Origin: Marine Group III euryarchaeote CG-Epi1
Lineage (GTDB): Archaea; Thermoplasmatota; Poseidoniia; MGIII; CG-Epi1
DNA length: 64,000 bases
Direction of reading: 5' to 3'
Assembly: GCA_001875345.1 (NCBI GenBank)
Contig: MIZA01000001.1
Span: 71,513 to 135,512 of the forward strand
Shown one piece after another: positions 1-64,000 of this stretch. Position 1 is the stretch's first letter; each line of letters starts with the position of its first letter. The notes beneath the pieces are model-generated. The model was not told where the DNA came from and searched no databases. It saw nothing but the letters and a program-made list of their open reading frames with translations. Made by a program: the position numbers and the translations under genes.

Positions 1-626
1 ATCTCAGACAGATCTGTCGATGGATTGTCTATAAGCATGACAAGAGAACTTATCACTTCGGACAAGTTGTGAGGTGCCATATTCGTAGCCATTCCAACAG
101 CAATACCTGATGAACCGTTAACCAATAAACCCGGAAGAAGACCTGGAAGAACTGAAGGTTCCTGTAAAGAACCATCGTAATTATCTGTGTAATCTACAGT
201 CTCTTCGTCAATGCCAGATAAAACTGTATCTGAAATTGTAGCCAATCGCGACTCTGTGTAACGCATGGCTGCAGCCCTATCTCCATCTATCGAACCAAAA
301 TTACCTTGACCATCTACCAAAGGATAACGTAAAGAAAAACTTTGAGCCATACGAACTAAAGTATCGTATATCGCTTGATCACCATGTGGATGATATTTAC
401 CCATGGTGTCTCCAACAATACGGGCAGATTTTTTGTAGGGCGAACGAGGGCCTGAACCCATCTCTTTCATTGCATAAAGAACTCTACGGTGAACTGGTTT
501 TAATCCATCCCTAGCGTCTGGAAGTGCTCTGCCTACAATAACTGACATTGCATAATCCAGATAGGATTTACGCATCTCTTTCTCTAAACTAATTGGCAGT
601 ACTGTGTCTGTATTTTCTTCCGTCAA
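1..626 (-). CDS. gyrA: DNA gyrase subunit A, N-terminal part (runs off window start)
   Basis: Not in the ORF track. Manual reverse-strand translation gives ...[34 protein letters not shown]...GKYHPHGD...[21 protein letters not shown] (catalytic Tyr)...[16 protein letters not shown] start at 626 is preceded by GGTGA; an alternative in-frame GTG lies at 635. Confidence 0.95.
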
Positions 627-9355: not shown

Positions 9356-11616
9356 TTCTTTTTAGGAGCCTTCTTTGGAACTTTCTTCTGAAGAATTGAG
9401 ATTAATTTACTTGCTGTACCACTTCTTCCACCTGATAATTCCGAAAAAGCAGATACCTCTACTAATTTACATGCAGATTCTTCGTCTAATTCTGCTTTAT
9501 TTGCTAAATTTTTAACAAAATTCATCTGCTTGACGCTGGTTGGCCTAGGCTTACTATCTGATAAATCTTTTAATTTACCAATTAATGTGCTTGCACTTCC
9601 TGATTTCCCGCCAGATAATTCTTCAAAGCTGGATATAGAAACGAGTTCACAGGCTTGAGATTCATTCATTTCTAAATTTTCAGCTAAACTCTTTATGAAT
9701 GAAACCTGCTTTGCAGTTGGTGGGAGTGACATACCTTCTGTTTCCTTCATCAAAGAATCAATGAGCTCCCCCATCATTTCACTATTGTATTTTAGAGGAT
9801 CATTGCCTTGTAACATTTCTTCAAGCCTTTCGGAAGAAACTAATGAAGCTAAACGCTCATAAAATTGTATTTGACGTTTGGTAGGGAATTCTTTTTTCTT
9901 TTTCAATGCATTATCGTGTAGCTCTCTAAAGTAGTTGAGGAAAGTTTCCCAAACTTCTGCTGCATCTCTTGAACCTGTTTCAATCTTATCTAAATCTGAT
10001 TCCATTTCTGATGTAAAATCGGTAGAAAATAAATTTTTGTCGTCCTGTTTATAAAATGGACTTACCTCATCCCAAAGTGTAATGCCGTTAGAGGTCGCCT
10101 TTAATCTCCCCCTATCATCACTGCAATATTTTCGATCTAATAATTTTTTTATTGTTGCAGCATACGTAGATGGTCGGCCTATTCCTTCTGATTTCATTAA
10201 TGCTACGAGACCGTGTTGAGTATACCTTGCAGGGGGCTTAGTCTCGTCTTCAATTAAATTAGGATTATTCTCTTTATCATCTAAGCTAAGAATTGAATTT
10301 TCCTTAATTTCAGGCTTTGGTGGAGAAGTCAAAGGTTTCTTGTCTATTTTTTCAAAGGCTGATTCCCAACCTGGAGAAGTCCTCCATTTAGTATCTCCAT
10401 CAAAAGGTTTCGGAAAACCTTCAGTTAATGCTTCAATCTTCATAGATGACCATTCCGAGTTAATCATTTGGCTACCAATAAATCGTGCCCAAATTAAACG
10501 ATATAACTTAGCCTGAGAACTATCTATTCCACTTGGAAGCTCTACGGAAGGATTTGTTGGACGTATCGCTTCGTGAGCATCCTGATCAGAAGACTTTTTG
10601 GCATAAACTACGCCTTTACCTATTTGATCAGCACCCCAAATTTCGGTTATTTTCTCTTTGGCTACTTGCCTCGATGAAGAACTTGTTCTGGTTGAATCTG
10701 TTCGCATATATGTTATGTGCCCAGCTTCGTAAAGTCCCTGAGCAAGTCTCATCGTGTTACTTGGTTTCCAGCTATATCTACTTCCTGCAGTTTGTAATAG
10801 TGTATCTGTGGTAAAAGGGGCCTTCGGACTCCTCTTGTATGATTTGACACTGACTTTACTTACTTTTATTGAACCATTTTTAGACAAAGATGAGAAACCT
10901 TGTGATGCTAAATCTGATACATTAGTTCTATGCGAATCAAACTTACCTTTTGAATCTCTCCAAGCATCATCATCATTCTTTTCGTGAAATTTTGCTCTAA
11001 AATCTATCCCTTGAGCTGTAGCCTGTAATGCCCAATATGGCGTAGATATAAAATTTGCAATTTCATGTTCCTTTTTTACTACAAAACCTAGTGCTGGTGT
11101 TTGAACTCTTCCCATTGAACTCAAATTCCAAGATCTAGAAAAGCGAGAAGCTCGATACCCTATGATTCGGTCCATAAATCTGCGGACCTTGGCAGCATCG
11201 ACCATTTTTGAATCAACTACTCCTGCAGAATTTAATGCTTGACGAATTGCATCTTTAGTGATTTCATTAAATGTAATGCGCTTTATTTCCCTAAATTCTG
11301 AGAAAAGTTCAGCTAATCTCCAAGCTATAAATTCGCCCTCTCTATCTGGATCAGTAGCTATTAGCACTCTTTCAACTTTTTTGCGACGGGAATCAGATAA
11401 TATACGTTTAATGTGATTTTCTGAGCGAGGAGTCCAACTCCAAGAAGGTTCAGGAAGCTGTGATTTTTTATTTGGCCATACCGCTTTACTGCCTTCTTTA
11501 CCTGAATTTGGTAAATCTTGAACATGCCCGTTAGAAGCTCTTACAATTACATTTTTACCTAGATATTTCTGAATAGTTTTTGCTTTCGCTCCGGACTCTA
11601 CTATCACCAAATCCAT
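9352..11616 (-). CDS. topA: DNA topoisomerase I, type IA (bacterial TopA-like) with C-terminal helical repeats
   Basis: LVIVESGAKAKTI, ATDPDREGE, GRVQTPAL, LYEAGHITYMRTDS (catalytic Tyr), QDAHEAIRPT, GIGRPSTYA. Confidence 0.95.
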   Translation of the reverse strand: MDLVIVESGAKAKTIQKYLGKNVIVRASNGHVQDLPNSGKEGSKAVWPNKKSQLPEPSWSWTPRSENHIKRILSDSRRKKVERVLIATDPDREGEFIAWRLAELFSEFREIKRITFNEITKDAIRQALNSAGVVDSKMVDAAKVRRFMDRIIGYRASRFSRSWNLSSMGRVQTPALGFVVKKEHEIANFISTPYWALQATAQGIDFRAKFHEKNDDDAWRDSKGKFDSHRTNVSDLASQGFSSLSKNGSIKVSKVSVKSYKRSPKAPFTTDTLLQTAGSRYSWKPSNTMRLAQGLYEAGHITYMRTDSTRTSSSSRQVAKEKITEIWGADQIGKGVVYAKKSSDQDAHEAIRPTNPSVELPSGIDSSQAKLYRLIWARFIGSQMINSEWSSMKIEALTEGFPKPFDGDTKWRTSPGWESAFEKIDKKPLTSPPKPEIKENSILSLDDKENNPNLIEDETKPPARYTQHGLVALMKSEGIGRPSTYAATIKKLLDRKYCSDDRGRLKATSNGITLWDEVSPFYKQDDKNLFSTDFTSEMESDLDKIETGSRDAAEVWETFLNYFRELHDNALKKKKEFPTKRQIQFYERLASLVSSERLEEMLQGNDPLKYNSEMMGELIDSLMKETEGMSLPPTAKQVSFIKSLAENLEMNESQACELVSISSFEELSGGKSGSASTLIGKLKDLSDSKPRPTSVKQMNFVKNLANKAELDEESACKLVEVSAFSELSGGRSGTASKLISILQKKVPKKAPKKK
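9375..9890 (-). repeat. Three degenerate ~55-60 aa repeats in the TopA C-terminus
   Basis: PTKRQIQFYERLA / PTAKQVSFIKSLA...ACELVSISSFEELSGGKSGSASTLI / PTSVKQMNFVKNLA...ACKLVEVSAFSELSGGRSGTASKLI. Confidence 0.8.
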
Positions 11617-48401: not shown

Positions 48402-51431
<3,030 letters not shown>

Positions 51432-58461: not shown

Positions 58462-59727
58462 ATGCCTAAGTTGGCCGAGAAATTTATTAGTGATAATGGC
58501 GCAAACATTTATGATAAAGTAAAGATTACAAATAAAGACCAAACTTTCGAAGGAATTATCATGCCAAGAAATAATTTTTCTGGAGAACATATTGTTGTCA
58601 TAAAACTCGATAATGGATATAATATTGGAGTCTCTACCGAAGATGCTGAAATGAATGTTATTGAGAAAGCAAAAGAAAAACCAAAGAAAGAACTTAAAAA
58701 CAAAAAAAATAAAAATCTAAAAGATATCACCATATTAGGAACTGGTGGAACTATTGCCTCATTTGTAGATTACAAAACTGGTGCCGTAAGTCCAGCGATT
58801 ACTGCTGAACAGCTTGTAAATTCGGTCAGTTCATTAAAAGAAATAGCTAATATTGAAGCTGAACCTCTATTATCTTTAGCATCTGAAGACATGGAGCCAA
58901 AGCATTGGGAACAAATGGCTGTAAAAGTAGAAGAAATACATTCAAAGAAAGACCATGGAATAATAGTGGGTCATGGGACTGACACTATGGGATATTCTGC
59001 CGCTGCTCTTTCATTCCAATTACCTGAATTGTCTAATCCAGTTATCTTCACAGGATCTCAAAGAAGCCCTGATAGACCTTCAAGTGACGCACATCTAAAT
59101 TTGGAAGGGGCTGCAAAAGCTGCTATGACAGACTTAGGAGAAGTATCCATAGCTATGCATGAAACAACAGATGACGTGGGCGTAGCTATCTGGCGAGGAA
59201 CTCGAACTAGGAAAAATCATTCATCAAAAAGAAATGCTTTCACTTCATTGAACGATGAACCTATAGGAATTGTAAACGAAAAGATTGAATGGAAAGGAAA
59301 ATACAAACCTATTTGTGATAAAACTACTATAAAACCGGGATTTGACGAGAATATAGCTATGGTTTGGGCACATCCTGGATTTAAAGCTGAGGATTGGGAA
59401 AACACAATTACTTCAAAAAAAGGAGTCGTGATTGCTGGAACTGGACTGGGACACATAAATTCAAACTTACTAGATTCAATAGGTAAAACGGCAAAGGATA
59501 TCCCTGTTGCAATGTCTACACAATGTTTAGCTGGAACTACCAATCTTAATGTTTACAGAAACGGAAGAGAATTAATAGAAAAAGGGGTTGTGGAAACTCA
59601 CGATACATTACCTGAAACTTCACTAGTAAAAATGATGTGGCTGACAAAACATGAGCCAAATAAAGTCGGTGAGTTAATGGGCGTAAACCTTGTTGGTGAA
59701 CTGTCGAATTCAAGAAAATTAATTTGA
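58462..59727 (+). CDS. gatD: Glutamyl-tRNA(Gln) amidotransferase subunit D
   Basis: KLDNGYNIG, GTGGTIAS, HGTDTM, GSQRSPDRPSSDA, GTGLGH. Confidence 0.95.
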   Translation: MPKLAEKFISDNGANIYDKVKITNKDQTFEGIIMPRNNFSGEHIVVIKLDNGYNIGVSTEDAEMNVIEKAKEKPKKELKNKKNKNLKDITILGTGGTIASFVDYKTGAVSPAITAEQLVNSVSSLKEIANIEAEPLLSLASEDMEPKHWEQMAVKVEEIHSKKDHGIIVGHGTDTMGYSAAALSFQLPELSNPVIFTGSQRSPDRPSSDAHLNLEGAAKAAMTDLGEVSIAMHETTDDVGVAIWRGTRTRKNHSSKRNAFTSLNDEPIGIVNEKIEWKGKYKPICDKTTIKPGFDENIAMVWAHPGFKAEDWENTITSKKGVVIAGTGLGHINSNLLDSIGKTAKDIPVAMSTQCLAGTTNLNVYRNGRELIEKGVVETHDTLPETSLVKMMWLTKHEPNKVGELMGVNLVGELSNSRKLI

Positions 59728-59763
59728 GAAAAGCTCTTTAGACTACTGCTCAATTGTGTTAAT

Positions 59764-60879
59764 ATGATTCATTCACAATTTGAAAAATTAGCTGATTTGC
59801 TAATCAACCATTCTTGCACATTAGGCAAAGGTGAAAAAGTATTGATTGAAGCTTTTGATATTCCTCAAGAAATGGTAATCGCTACCATTAGAGCTGCACG
59901 TAAAGTTGGAGGAATCCCCTTTGTTACTTGGAAAAATAACTTGATTCTAAAAGAACTAATCTCTGACACTACACAAGAACATATGGGATTAATGGGTGAT
60001 GTAGAAAAGTTTAGAATGAAGGAGATGGATGCATATATTGGACTTAGAGGAAGTCTCAATATTTCTGAAATGTCTGATATTGAATCCGGAAAAATGGCCA
60101 TTTATCAATCTGAACTTCTACAAAAAGTTCATTTCAAAGAGCGTGTTGCAAACACAAAATGGGTTGTTTTGCGATGGCCGACACCATCTATGGCACAACA
60201 AGCTAATATGTCTACAGAAGCTTTTGAAAAATTCTACTTCGACGTCTGTTGCTTAGATTACAAGAGGATGGATGAGGCAATGAAGCCATTAGAAAAATTG
60301 ATGACTGAAGCTGATAAAGTTCATATTAAAGGACCAGGAACAGATCTGAGATTTTCAATTAAAAACATTCCGGCAATAAGATGTGCCGGCGAACGAAATA
60401 TTCCTGATGGCGAATGCTTTACAGCTCCAGTAAAAGATTCTGTAGAAGGACACATCCAATTTAATGCCGAAACATTGTATCATGGAACAGTTTTCAATGA
60501 TATAAGATTAGAATTTGAAAAAGGTAAGGTTGTTAAAGCAACTGGAAGTGATGAAGAAAAATTAAACTCAATTCTAGACACTGATGAAGGAGGTAGATTC
60601 ATTGGAGAGTTTGCAATTGCCTTTAACCCATACATAACAGAACCAATGAGAGATATTTTGTTTGATGAAAAAATAGCTGGTAGTTTCCACTTTACACCAG
60701 GAAACGCCTACGATATTGCAGATAATGGAAATAGATCGGACATACACTGGGACATGGTACTAATTCAACGCCCAGATTACGGCGGCGGTGAAATCTGGTT
60801 TGATGATGTTTTAATTCGGAAAGATGGAATGTTTGTTATTCCTGAACTAAAAGGATTAAATCCCGAAAATCTAGTATAA
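59764..60879 (+). CDS. M29-family aminopeptidase (AmpS/AmpT-like)
   Basis: [33 protein letters not shown]. Confidence 0.93.
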
Positions 60880-62003
60880 TGGCGAATGAAAAGAAAATAA
60901 ATGCAATTGCCGACGCAGAGCAAGCTGGACTATACTATTCTAGTAACACTGAAGAAGGATTTACTCGTAAAATGGAAGGGGAAAATCAAATTTTTCTGAA
61001 TTCTAAAGGAAAGCCAATTAAAGGAAAACGAGATCTCAAAAGAATTGAAGAAATGAGAATACCTCCTGCATGGACTGATGTTTGGATTTGCACGGAGAAA
61101 AATGGACATTTACAAGCTACTGGAATTGATGCAAAGAAGAGAACGCAGTACATTTATCACCCAATTTGGACCCAATTAAGAAGTGAAGCTAAGTTTGATA
61201 AGATGTCTCTTTTTGGAAGAACTTTACCTAAAATAAGAGAACAATATTTTGAGGATTTGGCTTCTGAAGGTAATGAAAAACAACATGACTTACCTTATGA
61301 AAGAGTAATGGCATTAATCGTTAGGTTACTAGATACTACATTTATTCGAATTGGAAATGAAACTTCAAGGGATGATAAGGAGACTGCAACATATGGCTTA
61401 TCAACAATGCAAGACGAACACATAGATTTTGAACCTACGGAAATAACAGACGACCATGATAAGTGGTATGATTCACAAGTTGGTGGAAAATTTACATTTG
61501 TTGGAAAAAGTAACAAAAAACATGAAATTGAGATAAATGACGAAGAAATTCCTGATTTACCTGCATTAGTAATGATGTGTAAAGATGCGAAAAAAGGGAA
61601 AGGAGATGATTTATTTTTATTCTTTGATGAAGATGGAAATCCTCAAGATGTAAAAGCATATCACGTTAACGAATATATCCAAGAAGCATCTGGTGAAAAA
61701 TTTACAGCTAAAGATTTCAGAACTTGGGGCGGAACTAAATTAGCTGCAGAAGAAATTACTCAATTCAAGAAAAAAGATGATAAAAAACAAAGAAAGAAGA
61801 ACATTACTAAGATGGTTAAAGGCGTTGCAAAAAGATTGGGAAATACTCCTGCCGTATGCAGAGGGTCATACATTCACCCGCGATTTATCAACGACTACCT
61901 AAAGGGCTCATTCTTTAGATTGTGGAAAGAAACATTAGGTGACCAAATGTATCCTCTAAGTGAAAGCGAGAGTCACGTTATTAGATACTTAGAAAATAGT
62001 TAA
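60879..62003 (+). CDS. DNA topoisomerase IB, bacterial/poxvirus type
   Basis: IPPAWTDVWI, GHLQATGID..R.QYIYH, IRIGNE (R), FVGKS (K), KDFRTWGGT (R), LGNTPAVCRGSYIHP (N and catalytic Y). Confidence 0.93.
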   Translation: MANEKKINAIADAEQAGLYYSSNTEEGFTRKMEGENQIFLNSKGKPIKGKRDLKRIEEMRIPPAWTDVWICTEKNGHLQATGIDAKKRTQYIYHPIWTQLRSEAKFDKMSLFGRTLPKIREQYFEDLASEGNEKQHDLPYERVMALIVRLLDTTFIRIGNETSRDDKETATYGLSTMQDEHIDFEPTEITDDHDKWYDSQVGGKFTFVGKSNKKHEIEINDEEIPDLPALVMMCKDAKKGKGDDLFLFFDEDGNPQDVKAYHVNEYIQEASGEKFTAKDFRTWGGTKLAAEEITQFKKKDDKKQRKKNITKMVKGVAKRLGNTPAVCRGSYIHPRFINDYLKGSFFRLWKETLGDQMYPLSESESHVIRYLENS

Positions 62004-62032
62004 GTTTAAACACCCTCTATCATTAGATAAAT

Positions 62033-62251
62033 ATGGCGCTAAGTGATTTAGATGCAAATGACAAAAAAGTTTATGAATATCTAAAATTGTATGATTTCGT
62101 TGAAAATCCTTGGTCAACAAAAAAAGCTGCAAAGGCCTTGAAAATGAAGGAAGATGACGTATATGAATCTCTATCTAATTTAGCCGAATACATGAGAAAT
62201 AACATTCACATTCATTACAAAGACGGCTCCATACGAATTGGAGCAAATTAA
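62033..62251 (+). CDS. Small winged-helix-like protein
   Basis: 72 aa; WSTKKAAKALKMKEDDVYESLSNL followed by a beta-hairpin. Confidence 0.6.
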   Translation: MALSDLDANDKKVYEYLKLYDFVENPWSTKKAAKALKMKEDDVYESLSNLAEYMRNNIHIHYKDGSIRIGAN

Positions 62252-62613: not shown

Positions 62614-63693
62614 GTGAAAAAAAACAATATCACTGCAATAGTAGCCACGATTTTATTGATCTCAATGATTTTCTTTGTACCTAATTCTACCGCAAATAAA
62701 GAACTAACTGGAGGAATGGCACCAGTTCATCTTAATATGAAAGAAGCTTCAGGCATCTCTGCTGAAACGTGGGGAGATATATCTAGAGAAGCTGTGAAAG
62801 ATAACCCTCCTAGATCTTGGACTTCAACACCAGGAACTGCGGATCAATTGCGAACAAGAGAATGGAAAGATGTAGGTACTTGGACCTCAGCAAGTGGAAT
62901 AGAGTTTGATATTGGGTTAAGCGGGCCCGTAAAGTTCAATTTGTGGTGGAGAGAATCTGATCAAGGACAAAACGATGATTATGATGCTCAAGTTCAATAT
63001 CGTATTAGACTAAACATAGATGGAGTGGATTCTGCGTATTATACTGATGAGGACTCTGGTATGCAGCATGAATGTGCAGAGTCTAAACCTTGCCAATGGA
63101 CTGGCGATACAAATGACCTCAATGTTTCATCTGCTGCAAAAGGTACCATATTTGAAATTGAAATCGAATATTGGGCTTATTCAGACATTGAAGTTTACTA
63201 TGATAACTCTTCATTAGATAGTGGAGTAATGTTTGATTCAACGGGAATAAAATTTGGAAATAGCCAAATTAATGGACAGGAGATTAATTTTAACTTTGTT
63301 CAAACATGGAATGCAGACATAGAAGAAGCTATAACTGGAAACTTTCTAACGTTAACATTAGCTGGTGTAGACTTAATAAATAGTGAGCAGAGAAAAGGCT
63401 ATCCAAAAATAGAAGAAGGAATTACTTATGATTTCAATGGTAGTGATATTAAATCTACAAAAATTACATGGTATGTTGATGATGAATATGCTAAGTTGGA
63501 TCAGGCAGTTATTTCTTTTTCTTTAGCAAGAGTTGGTTCTGTAACTCCTCAAATACAAATTAATGTAGCTGATATTTTAATTGAGGGAAGTGCTGCTGCA
63601 GAAGACGAGGGCATACTAGGATTACCAGGTTTTGAATTTGCTGTAGTGATTTCAGCCCTTATATCTACGAGTTATATCAGAAGAAAAGTTTAA
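62614..63693 (+). CDS. Secreted protein with PGF-CTERM-like sorting signal
   Basis: Signal peptide; C-terminal GLPGFEFAVVISALISTSYIRRKV. Confidence 0.82.
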   Translation: MKKNNITAIVATILLISMIFFVPNSTANKELTGGMAPVHLNMKEASGISAETWGDISREAVKDNPPRSWTSTPGTADQLRTREWKDVGTWTSASGIEFDIGLSGPVKFNLWWRESDQGQNDDYDAQVQYRIRLNIDGVDSAYYTDEDSGMQHECAESKPCQWTGDTNDLNVSSAAKGTIFEIEIEYWAYSDIEVYYDNSSLDSGVMFDSTGIKFGNSQINGQEINFNFVQTWNADIEEAITGNFLTLTLAGVDLINSEQRKGYPKIEEGITYDFNGSDIKSTKITWYVDDEYAKLDQAVISFSLARVGSVTPQIQINVADILIEGSAAAEDEGILGLPGFEFAVVISALISTSYIRRKV

Positions 63694-63721: not shown

Positions 63722-64000
63722 ATGAGACAAATATTAGTCTTCACAGCATTGGCAATCGCTGCAATGTTTATGCTATCTAGCAATGTCACTGCAGAACCTG
63801 AATATGAGAATCCTGACTTACAATTAAAATTCAACTGGAAAGAAGAAGGAGATATGCTCTCTCCACAGACTAAGCTTCCTAGTGATCCTGAAGCTCAAAA
63901 AACTGTAATGGCTGATTATACAAACACATTTGGCCTAGCCAAAACAGATAGACAACCTGTAAACGTAGGAACTTGGACAAGTGAGGCTGTAGAATTCGAT
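63722..64000 (+). CDS. Secreted protein, 5' part (truncated by window end); probable paralog of the upstream gene
   Basis: Manual translation MRQILVFTALAIAAMFMLSSNVTAEPE...RQPVNVGTWTSEAVEFD; signal peptide; open to the end of the window. Confidence 0.75.
   Translation, partial: MRQILVFTALAIAAMFMLSSNVTAEPEYENPDLQLKFNWKEEGDMLSPQTKLPSDPEAQKTVMADYTNTFGLAKTDRQPVNVGTWTSEAVEFD

Follow-up and report, generated by a model that had tools for sequence, protein, structure and literature searches.

Type IB DNA topoisomerases (TopIBs) relax supercoils of both signs without ATP or Mg, which, according to passages in PMC4824112, has also been reported for an archaeal enzyme. The short form of these enzymes is said, in passages of two papers (PMC2621148, from 2008; PMC4824112, from 2016), to be present in bacteria and viruses. 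For the archaea, the available sections of reviews on topoisomerases list type IB only for the Thaumarchaeota and their relatives: Table 1 of a 2021 review (PMC8185306) gives it only for Nitrososphaeria among its representatives, with none in the Thermoplasmata rows, and the available sections of a 2024 review (PMC11894792) contain no mention of type IB under four spellings. In the open-access literature, supplements aside, we found no report pairing topoisomerase IB with Poseidoniales or TopIB with Thermoplasmatota, and "topoisomerase IB", archaea and Marine Group II (MGII) were co-mentioned only in unrelated places. Here we describe topIB, a gene for a short, bacterial-type TopIB, in a stretch of 64,000 nucleotides (nt) of contig MIZA01000001.1 of Marine Group III euryarchaeote CG-Epi1 (assembly GCA_001875345.1); this whole stretch is called the window below. 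Our overall best explanation, in which we have good confidence, is that the gene encodes a catalytically competent short TopIB that is resident in the class Poseidoniia, derives from a single old bacterial import and serves as an auxiliary swivel.

The gene and the parts of its product are listed below in window coordinates. Rows refer to one alignment of 157 TopIBs, over which spacings and residue conservation were counted.

60879..62003, plus strand: topIB, short (bacterial/poxvirus-type) type IB DNA topoisomerase; ATG start, 374 amino acids (aa); identified by Pfam, a PDB match, AlphaFold2 and Foldseek
60993..61130, plus strand: N-terminal beta-sheet domain, the bacterial TopIB N-domain (residues 39-84; PF21338 Top1B_N_bact)
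61176..61859, plus strand: catalytic core (residues 100-327) matched by PF01028; the catalytic Tyr lies just past its end, at residue 331
61272..61289, plus strand: six-residue insertion (about residues 132-137), in the window's family only; L127-A145 spacing
61347..61349, plus strand: codon of R157, first catalytic Arg; pairs with 2f4q_A residue 137; 157/157 rows
61431..61478, plus strand: acidic insertion i (residues 185-200), at the tip of the hairpin leading into K210; H181-G209 spacing
61506..61508, plus strand: codon of K210, catalytic Lys in an FxFxGK motif; invariant column in two MAFFT alignments; 157/157 rows
61584..61604, plus strand: insertion ii (about residues 236-242); K210-F246 spacing
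61719..61721, plus strand: codon of R281, second catalytic Arg, in AKDFRTW; pairs with 2f4q_A residue 239; 157/157 rows
61842..61844, plus strand: codon of N322, Asn at the position of the eukaryotic His; pairs with 2f4q_A residue 280
61869..61871, plus strand: codon of Y331, nucleophilic Tyr, in SYIHP; pairs with 2f4q_A residue 289

The original prediction, made from the letters of the DNA, had read this locus as a complete 374-aa TopIB of bacterial type, and the ORF is present as described, with both of its Pfam domains well above their cut-offs. PF01028 (Topoisom_I) reached E 6.3e-34 and 117.8 bits against a curated cut-off of 23.7, and PF21338 reached E 1.2e-20 and 73.4 bits against a cut-off of 27; a search of the whole genome recovered the same PF01028 stretch as its one match, so that the gene is single copy. 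PF02919 was absent from the Pfam families matching the protein at E up to 0.01, the Pfam scan gave no long Topoisom_I_N DNA-binding domain, and in an NCBIfam scan no model was reached by TopIB or by three neighbour proteins. Among solved structures, the closest by sequence was the TopIB of Deinococcus radiodurans (2f4q/3m4a; phmmer E 1.7e-40), with the variola TopIB at E 1.4e-6 and the long 539-aa chain 6z01, which we take to be an archaeal enzyme, at E 2.1e-5. The bacterial assignment is thus upheld by the Top1B_N_bact domain, by the Asn in the catalytic set and by the gap between D. radiodurans TopIB and 6z01 in this search. The near homologues (76-93% identity) are all 373-379 aa long, and their source names already read, for example, "DNA topoisomerase IB [Candidatus Poseidoniales archaeon]". 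We conclude that the ORF at 60879..62003 is a genuine, selected, short bacterial-type TopIB.

The catalytic set consists of R157, K210, R281, N322 and Y331, with N322 and Y331 spaced nine residues apart. Four of the five (R157, R281, N322 and Y331) were paired in the phmmer alignment to 2f4q_A; K210 was misaligned there because of the insertion. Residues 137, 174, 239, 280 and 289 of the D. radiodurans enzyme are, we assume, its proven catalytic residues. The two Arg and the Lys are kept in every one of the 157 rows, Y331 is kept in 156/157, the sole gap being a truncated row, and the fourth position holds Asn in 152 rows and His in four, with one gap. Both the intact R-K-R-N-Y set of the original prediction and its Asn in place of the eukaryotic and poxviral His are therefore confirmed. 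The equivalents in human Top1 are R488, K532, R590, H632 and Y723 (PMC4824112, Figure 3 legend and adjoining text).

The AlphaFold2 model, built on an alignment of 68 sequences, has a mean predicted local distance difference test score (pLDDT) of 90.3 and a predicted TM-score (pTM) of 0.81. The pLDDT falls below 50 only at residues 1-4 and dips at about residues 181-200 (means of 10-residue blocks 77 and 57), and the strands of the N-domain are modelled at residues 27-33, 36-40, 66-71, 78-83 and 89-93. In a Foldseek search against the PDB the top ranks were 3m4a_A (E 9.2e-20) and 2f4q (E 2.5e-19), followed by the variola enzymes at about 1e-12 (2h7f_X, 7e-13) and human Top1 at about 1e-10. The predicted fold is thus the two-domain clamp of the solved bacterial and poxviral enzymes. 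A tyrosine recombinase or integrase was considered and rejected: the best such chain, XerH 5jjv_B, reached only E 5e-3 versus 9e-20 for TopIB, and the gene stands without an integrase context.

For the phylogeny we gathered 41 archaeal loci, 78 named bacterial loci, 2 archaeal records, 32 loci of a viral collection and metagenome proteins; 9 near-duplicate loci of the genus, L047 (partial), 20 redundant viral loci and metagenome proteins below 300 aa were left out of the 157-row tree. The trees were rooted on giant-virus sequences, and the long thaumarchaeal and eukaryotic TopIBs and the DPANN TopIBs stand outside them. A grouping with the eukaryote-like archaeal TopIBs, which the original prediction had named as one of the outcomes that would overturn it, was judged only by domains and by similarity to solved chains, and was not seen. 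In all three trees every Poseidoniia TopIB falls together with four metagenome proteins (P0101, P0102, P0104 and P0105) in one clade nested among bacteria, with a support of 99 in FastTree (157 rows), 93 in a quick IQ-TREE run (LG+C20 with posterior mean site frequencies, PMSF; 67 rows) and 100/99 in a careful IQ-TREE run (32 rows). Within the clade, the window's family is supported at 100/96 and the other Poseidoniia at 100/97. When the 16 Poseidoniia rows were held together in an approximately unbiased (AU) test, one clade was not rejected (delta lnL 0.91, p 0.40). P0104 lies on an 11-kb metagenome contig (64-70% GC), where its neighbours include DUF3300 and DUF2950, and its look-alike clusters in the Atlas are 97-100% Bacteria, mostly Pseudomonadota; the four proteins, which form the sister group, are probably bacterial. 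The TopIBs of 9 other Thermoplasmatota fall in several places among bacteria, outside the Poseidoniia clade. A viral origin was rejected, as among 32 related viral-collection loci the best was 38% identical and none lay inside the clade. The horizontal origin proposed by the original prediction is supported by this nesting among bacterial TopIBs, and the history that the trees suggest, together with the insertions and the distribution described below, seems to be one ancient transfer from bacteria into the Poseidoniia, followed by many losses. As a separate observation, L014 (G047, family f4) and L027 (G397, family f3) are near-identical sister TopIBs across families (support 98-99), and G397 is the only TopIB-positive genome of 18 in its genus; the pair suggests either that the gene recently moved from one family to another or that a contig was mis-binned.

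The Poseidoniia TopIBs are further marked by insertions. The acidic stretch quoted in the original prediction, EPTEITDDHDKWYDSQ, corresponds to residues 185-200 and is genuinely inserted, being the enlarged form of the first insertion. Between H181 and G209 the spacing is 27 in the window TopIB, 27-28 in its family (9/9 rows) and 15-34 in other Poseidoniia (21/21), versus 13 in 78/78 bacteria and in the 4/4 unnamed rows of the sister group, and 13-14 in the 9 rows of other Thermoplasmatota. The K210-F246 spacing is 35 in the window's family (9 rows) and 31-34 in other Poseidoniia (21), and it is 29 in all 78 bacteria, the 4 sister rows and the 9 other Thermoplasmatota rows. Longer spacings at both sites thus mark 30/30 Poseidoniia rows, against 0/78 bacterial, 0/4 sister-group and 0/9 other Thermoplasmatota rows. 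A third spacing, L127-A145, is 17 in 9/9 rows of the window's family versus 11 in 78/78 bacteria. Insertion i is no less constrained within the genus than the rest of TopIB, its mean nonsynonymous difference (pN) being 0.061 versus 0.147 in the N-domain and 0.090 in the catalytic part. Many TopIBs of the other order (L014, L017, L018, L019, L022, L023, L025 and others) carry an extra insertion that lies past the second catalytic Arg and before the Asn, with a W283-V316 spacing of 38-89 versus 32 in bacteria and the window's family; its site differs from the position of the eukaryotic linker.

The gene sits in a conserved chromosomal context, the immediate parts of which are:

59764..60879, plus strand: M29 aminopeptidase gene, directly upstream of topIB (PF02073, E 1.9e-49)
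62033..62251, plus strand: conserved 72-aa gene downstream of topIB, with 64-92% identity in 12 orthologues

The gene order is FtsJ, HEAT-repeat protein, GatD, M29, TopIB, the 72-aa gene, DUF357 and a secreted protein. As the original prediction had it, the topIB start overlaps the end of the M29 gene by one base (...GTATAATGGCG...), the A of the ATG being the last base of the TAA stop. In the genus, 14/14 loci (13 genomes) have M29, TopIB and the 72-aa gene in this order, with DUF357 and the secreted protein next in every genus locus long enough; the upstream genes (FtsJ, HEAT-repeat, GatD) are visible only in the two longer genus loci. The adjacency of M29 and TopIB, together with the upstream genes, recurs in 2 loci of the sister genus, and gene order thus indicates that the position of topIB has been fixed since before the two genera split. 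The original prediction had also reported that mobile-element genes are lacking nearby, which agrees with a Pfam scan of the 8 neighbouring proteins, in which no mobile-element family (integrase, transposase) was found, and with the lack of a tRNA between positions 50 and 64 kb of the window. The composition of topIB (GC 0.345; GC at third codon positions, GC3, 0.245) is close to that of the M29 gene (0.359 and 0.255) and of the window (GC 0.356). Its dN/dS has a median of 0.06 (range 0.016-0.108) over the 25 usable pairs of 78 genus orthologue pairs, the remaining pairs having been left out as saturated at synonymous sites. Host-like composition, purifying dN/dS and fixed synteny all accord with the term "domesticated" used in the original prediction.

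Independent sequence data contain the same arrangement. The 2.6-kb stretch is almost whole (0.91-0.96 of sampled words) in 14 marine DNA runs from 7 studies of 2014-2025, one of which may be the source of the assembly itself. Both gene junctions are bridged by DNA contigs of 2 studies with 0-5 differing letters: a 4003-nt contig of run X2 covers 59700-61852 with one differing letter, and contigs of run X4 bridge 60879 and 62003-62033. Two RNA-library contigs cross the M29/topIB junction, one of 417 nt from library X15 (60530-60946, no differences) and one of 711 nt from library X16 (60492-61202), which has 33 differences and hence comes from a relative. More contigs from RNA libraries of 2 studies cover other parts of topIB, with some gene bins uncovered. 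These contigs are compatible with co-transcription of topIB and the M29 gene.

The distribution of TopIB was assessed by PF01028 counts, with Top6A (PF04406) as the core-gene yardstick. The order of the window's genome comprises 45 species genomes, and the genomes of the window's family are small. TopIB was found in 24/31 genomes of the window's genus (Top6A 25/31), in 29/42 of its family without the source genome G000 (Top6A 35/42) and in 0/2 of the second family of the order (Top6A 2/2). For the class Poseidoniia the counts were 156/401 sampled genomes (Top6A 374/401), 27/76 high-quality genomes (Top6A 74/76) and 18/30 genera (Top6A 30/30). Across genera TopIB is bimodal, being nearly always positive in some (g8 41/51, g16 21/25, g22 10/11, g27 5/5), never in others (g9 0/21, g12 0/24, g13 0/12, g23 0/14) and mixed in a few (g7 19/59, g3 5/9). 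With Top6A as the standard, TopIB is practically a core gene of the window's genus, and its patchiness elsewhere is real. The survey of related genomes that the original prediction had proposed thus found both the gene and its synteny in the genus, and the result goes beyond that prediction: to judge from the class-wide counts and the common insertions, the transfer is not specific to the source organism but old and class-wide. A trade-off with Topo VI was rejected, since Top6A is present throughout the class and in the high-quality genomes regardless of TopIB, with no complementarity. In a phylum-wide sample, a PF21338 search was positive in 43/401 genomes, 10 of them outside the three main Poseidoniia families, of which 9 were over the cut-off. 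The other Thermoplasmatota families with short TopIBs (L033-L041) include f11 (5/9) and f27 (2/3), plus single genomes.

We also inspected the M29 locus in five genomes of the family without a TopIB match. In G034 (97% complete) and G036 (94%), the 72-aa gene follows 76 bp after M29 with no topIB between them; the 72-aa gene is therefore a part of the locus rather than a companion of topIB. Where genomes of the sister genus do have TopIB, two extra genes stand between it and the 72-aa gene, and a reading of their sequences, without a Pfam scan, suggests that they are PCD-like and MscS-like. A block of about 2.9 kb (TopIB, the PCD-like gene and the MscS-like channel gene) between M29 and the 72-aa gene is thus cleanly missing in some species, giving a presence/absence polymorphism within one genus (L180 in G034 and L181 in G036 versus L013 and L029). 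The apparent absence in G005, G033 and G041 was rejected, as the contigs concerned (G005:C102, G033:C34, G041:C64) end in or right after M29; counts of absence are therefore upper bounds, and the breaks may reflect strain variation at the locus.

With regard to the downstream gene, the original prediction had called it a small winged-helix-turn-helix (wHTH) gene. The gene itself is present and conserved (35 invariant columns in 13 sequences), and the wHTH label is weakly supported: the protein matches no Pfam family, its model is a three-helix bundle with a pLDDT of 72, and the best Foldseek E is 0.26, the weak top rows being mostly HTH or winged-helix DNA-binding domains. Further downstream, two adjacent genes on the plus strand (62614-63693, and 63722-64000, which runs off the end) encode signal-peptide-bearing proteins with no Pfam match and a common "VGTWTS" motif; in relatives (L030, L031) a second, weaker copy follows the first.

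The remaining topoisomerase features of the window are:

1..530, minus strand: portion inside the window of the GyrA (PF00521) match, which continues upstream of the window start (E 7.2e-161, C1:70723-72042, 863-aa open frame)
9952..11214, minus strand: type IA topoisomerase (PF01131; E 4.8e-97, C1:81464-82726, 761-aa open frame)
50223..50732, minus strand: GyrB domain (PF00204; E 1.6e-64, C1:121735-122244, 650-aa open frame), its window coordinates converted from the contig offset

GyrA, GyrB and the type IA enzyme are thus encoded on the same contig as topIB, in agreement with the gyrase-containing host of the original prediction, and the host genome also has Top6A (Topo VI). The GyrA, type IA, GyrB and TopIB matches all lie within or at the edge of one 64-kb window, and gyrA and gyrB are about 50 kb apart, not adjacent.

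The chemistry of the enzyme is taken from its membership of a well-studied family. By this analogy, TopIB would clamp duplex DNA, and Tyr331 would attack one strand to form a 3'-phosphotyrosyl link, with R157, K210, R281 and N322 stabilising the transition state and the leaving group; the broken strand would swivel round the intact one before the nick is resealed, so that positive and negative supercoils would be relaxed without ATP or Mg. The gene is a resident chromosomal gene of an archaeon of the Poseidoniia, which are marine planktonic Thermoplasmatota, and it is probably co-transcribed with the upstream M29 gene. A bacterial TopIB would have entered the class once, near its base, gained the two class-specific insertions, and then been kept in some genera, including that of the window, and lost in many others. 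Most likely, though we hold this loosely, its role would be that of an auxiliary swivel that needs no energy, eases the torsional stress of transcription and replication and counterbalances gyrase. An auxiliary role is the likeliest given that gyrase, Topo VI and a type IA enzyme are already in the cell and that relatives have an empty site at the locus.

Two explanations would remove the gene from the biology of its host. According to one, a piece of a bacterial contig was mis-assembled or mis-binned into an archaeal genome. The assembly (1.18 Mb) is in 25 contigs and 87% complete, and genes of bacterial type are a well-known warning of contamination when they turn up in archaeal bins; however, topIB is flanked by archaeal genes, GatD and DUF357 among them, in the interior of a contig longer than 135 kb, its start overlaps the M29 stop, and its GC3 equals that of the host. 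The recurrence of the arrangement in the genus and the contigs of other studies across both junctions point the same way, as does a contamination estimate of 0.83%. We consider the chance of such an artefact negligible, and chimeric assembly and contamination, both named in the original prediction as possible refuters, are excluded by synteny, composition and these contigs. According to the other, topIB is part of a provirus or other mobile element and serves the element rather than the host. That short TopIBs occur in poxviruses and giant viruses, that the distribution among relatives is patchy and that an empty site exists would all fit. Still, neither mobile families nor a tRNA are found near the gene, besides topIB, the block that G034 and G036 lack holds genes that the same reading of their sequences suggests to be PCD-like and MscS-like, not viral, none of the viral-collection loci is close to or groups with the Poseidoniia clade, and the position was fixed before the two genera split. 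We therefore regard a mobile element as very improbable.

The number of acquisitions and the role of the enzyme leave more room for discussion, and several points weigh against the explanation that we prefer. The split between the window's family, the other Poseidoniia and the group of P0101 is not resolved in any of the three trees, so that the main grounds for a single acquisition are the insertion sites in common and the non-rejecting AU test. The bacterial nature of the sister group rests on one 11-kb contig (66% GC, DUF neighbours) and the Atlas look-alikes. Two families are intermixed inside the clade of the second Poseidoniia order (taken as MGII), which implies transfers within the class, mis-binning or poor resolution, and the H181-G209 spacings of the two orders (27-28 versus 15-34) may reflect independent lengthening of a permissive loop. 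The evidence from the RNA libraries consists of assembled contigs, for which DNA carry-over is possible and which show neither strand nor level. The cellular role is a guess and the enzyme activity a prediction, and since G034 and G036 lack topIB at a locus that is otherwise the same, the gene is dispensable and cannot be essential. Some of these points would also be expected if the two Poseidoniia orders had each taken a related bacterial TopIB, or had later exchanged it. In favour of two or more such acquisitions, besides the split among the three groups and the intermixed families, P0001 is 43-49% identical to bacterial or metagenome proteins and only 31-38% to the majority of TopIBs from MGII, not one neighbour of topIB in the window recurs at the 16 loci from the other order, and other Thermoplasmatota acquired short TopIBs on at least two separate occasions. 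The identity figure is qualified by the L020 lineage, which reaches 44% to P0001; moreover, both insertion sites are lengthened in all Poseidoniia rows and in none of the bacterial, sister or other Thermoplasmatota rows, the whole group is supported at 100/99, and the AU test keeps one clade. On balance, independent acquisitions appear quite unlikely, and a single import remains our preferred history. As to the role, the acidic hairpin and the other insertions could give the enzyme a restricted job rather than that of a bulk relaxase, candidates being poxvirus-like site-specific cleavage, damage processing or work with a partner protein. Poxvirus TopIBs have His at the fourth catalytic position and cleave at a pentamer site. 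Such specialisation would agree with the constraint on the insertion beside the catalytic Lys, with the dispensability of topIB in relatives and with the near-universal presence of Topo VI in the class with or without TopIB, which makes bulk relaxation independent of TopIB. Against it, all catalytic columns and most columns of the DNA-binding core are as in ordinary bacterial TopIBs, and topIB has no conserved partner gene that accompanies it throughout the class; among themselves, the 16 loci from the other order have only scattered neighbours in common. We judge a specialised enzyme to be unlikely, though not far-fetched, and retain the auxiliary swivel as the preferred role.

In summary, about four in ten of the Poseidoniia genomes sampled carry a gene for a short bacterial-type TopIB, which is stably kept and under selection. 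Poseidoniia are among the most abundant archaeal groups of the surface ocean. With this enzyme, archaea that have gyrase would possess a fourth activity able to relax DNA, and the gene offers what appears to be a clear example of a DNA-topology gene that passed from bacteria to archaea long ago and is marked by common insertions; related genomes with and without topIB at the same locus allow comparison. A more speculative proposal, to which we give little credence, is that the Poseidoniia TopIBs form a distinct archaeal subfamily, in which the acidic hairpin adapts a bacterial swivel to a gyrase-run cell, the enzyme being the relaxase that offsets gyrase where a bacterial TopA-type enzyme is lacking. 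If this were true, the presence/absence polymorphism within genera would mark lineages with different supercoiling set-points and, taken together with the separate short TopIBs of other Thermoplasmatota, it would imply that a recurrent import from bacteria is missing from the textbook "archaeal topoisomerase kit".

The class of enzyme is well understood and the protein has already been named in databases; the advance therefore concerns distribution and evolution, not mechanism, which is also apparent from a comparison with the known systems. With the long thaumarchaeal TopIBs, as described in passages of PMC4824112 and PMC2621148, the window TopIB has in common the PF01028 core, the swivel mechanism and the active-site R, K, R and Y; unlike them, it has a bacterial N-domain, no linker, Asn322 in place of the His (human H632) and a length of 374 aa. 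The short TopIBs of other Thermoplasmatota (L033-L041) are likewise of the short bacterial type and belong to the same host phylum, but they are without both class-specific insertions (9/9) and are placed elsewhere among bacteria, and by this placement they are separate acquisitions. The poxvirus TopIBs (variola 2H7F and 3IGC; vaccinia 1A41) are similar in their short architecture, chemistry and fold (Foldseek 7e-13, TM-score by target 0.75), but the identity is 18%, and their giant-virus relatives are the outgroup in our trees. The closest known system is the D. radiodurans TopIB (2F4Q, 3M4A), which has the same combination of PF21338 and PF01028, the same R-K-R-N-Y set with Asn and the same fold in 346 versus 374 aa. 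The window TopIB differs from it in sequence (31-33% identity in the structural alignment) and in its archaeal host, and from the bacterial short TopIBs as a whole by three insertions that are absent from 78/78 bacterial rows.

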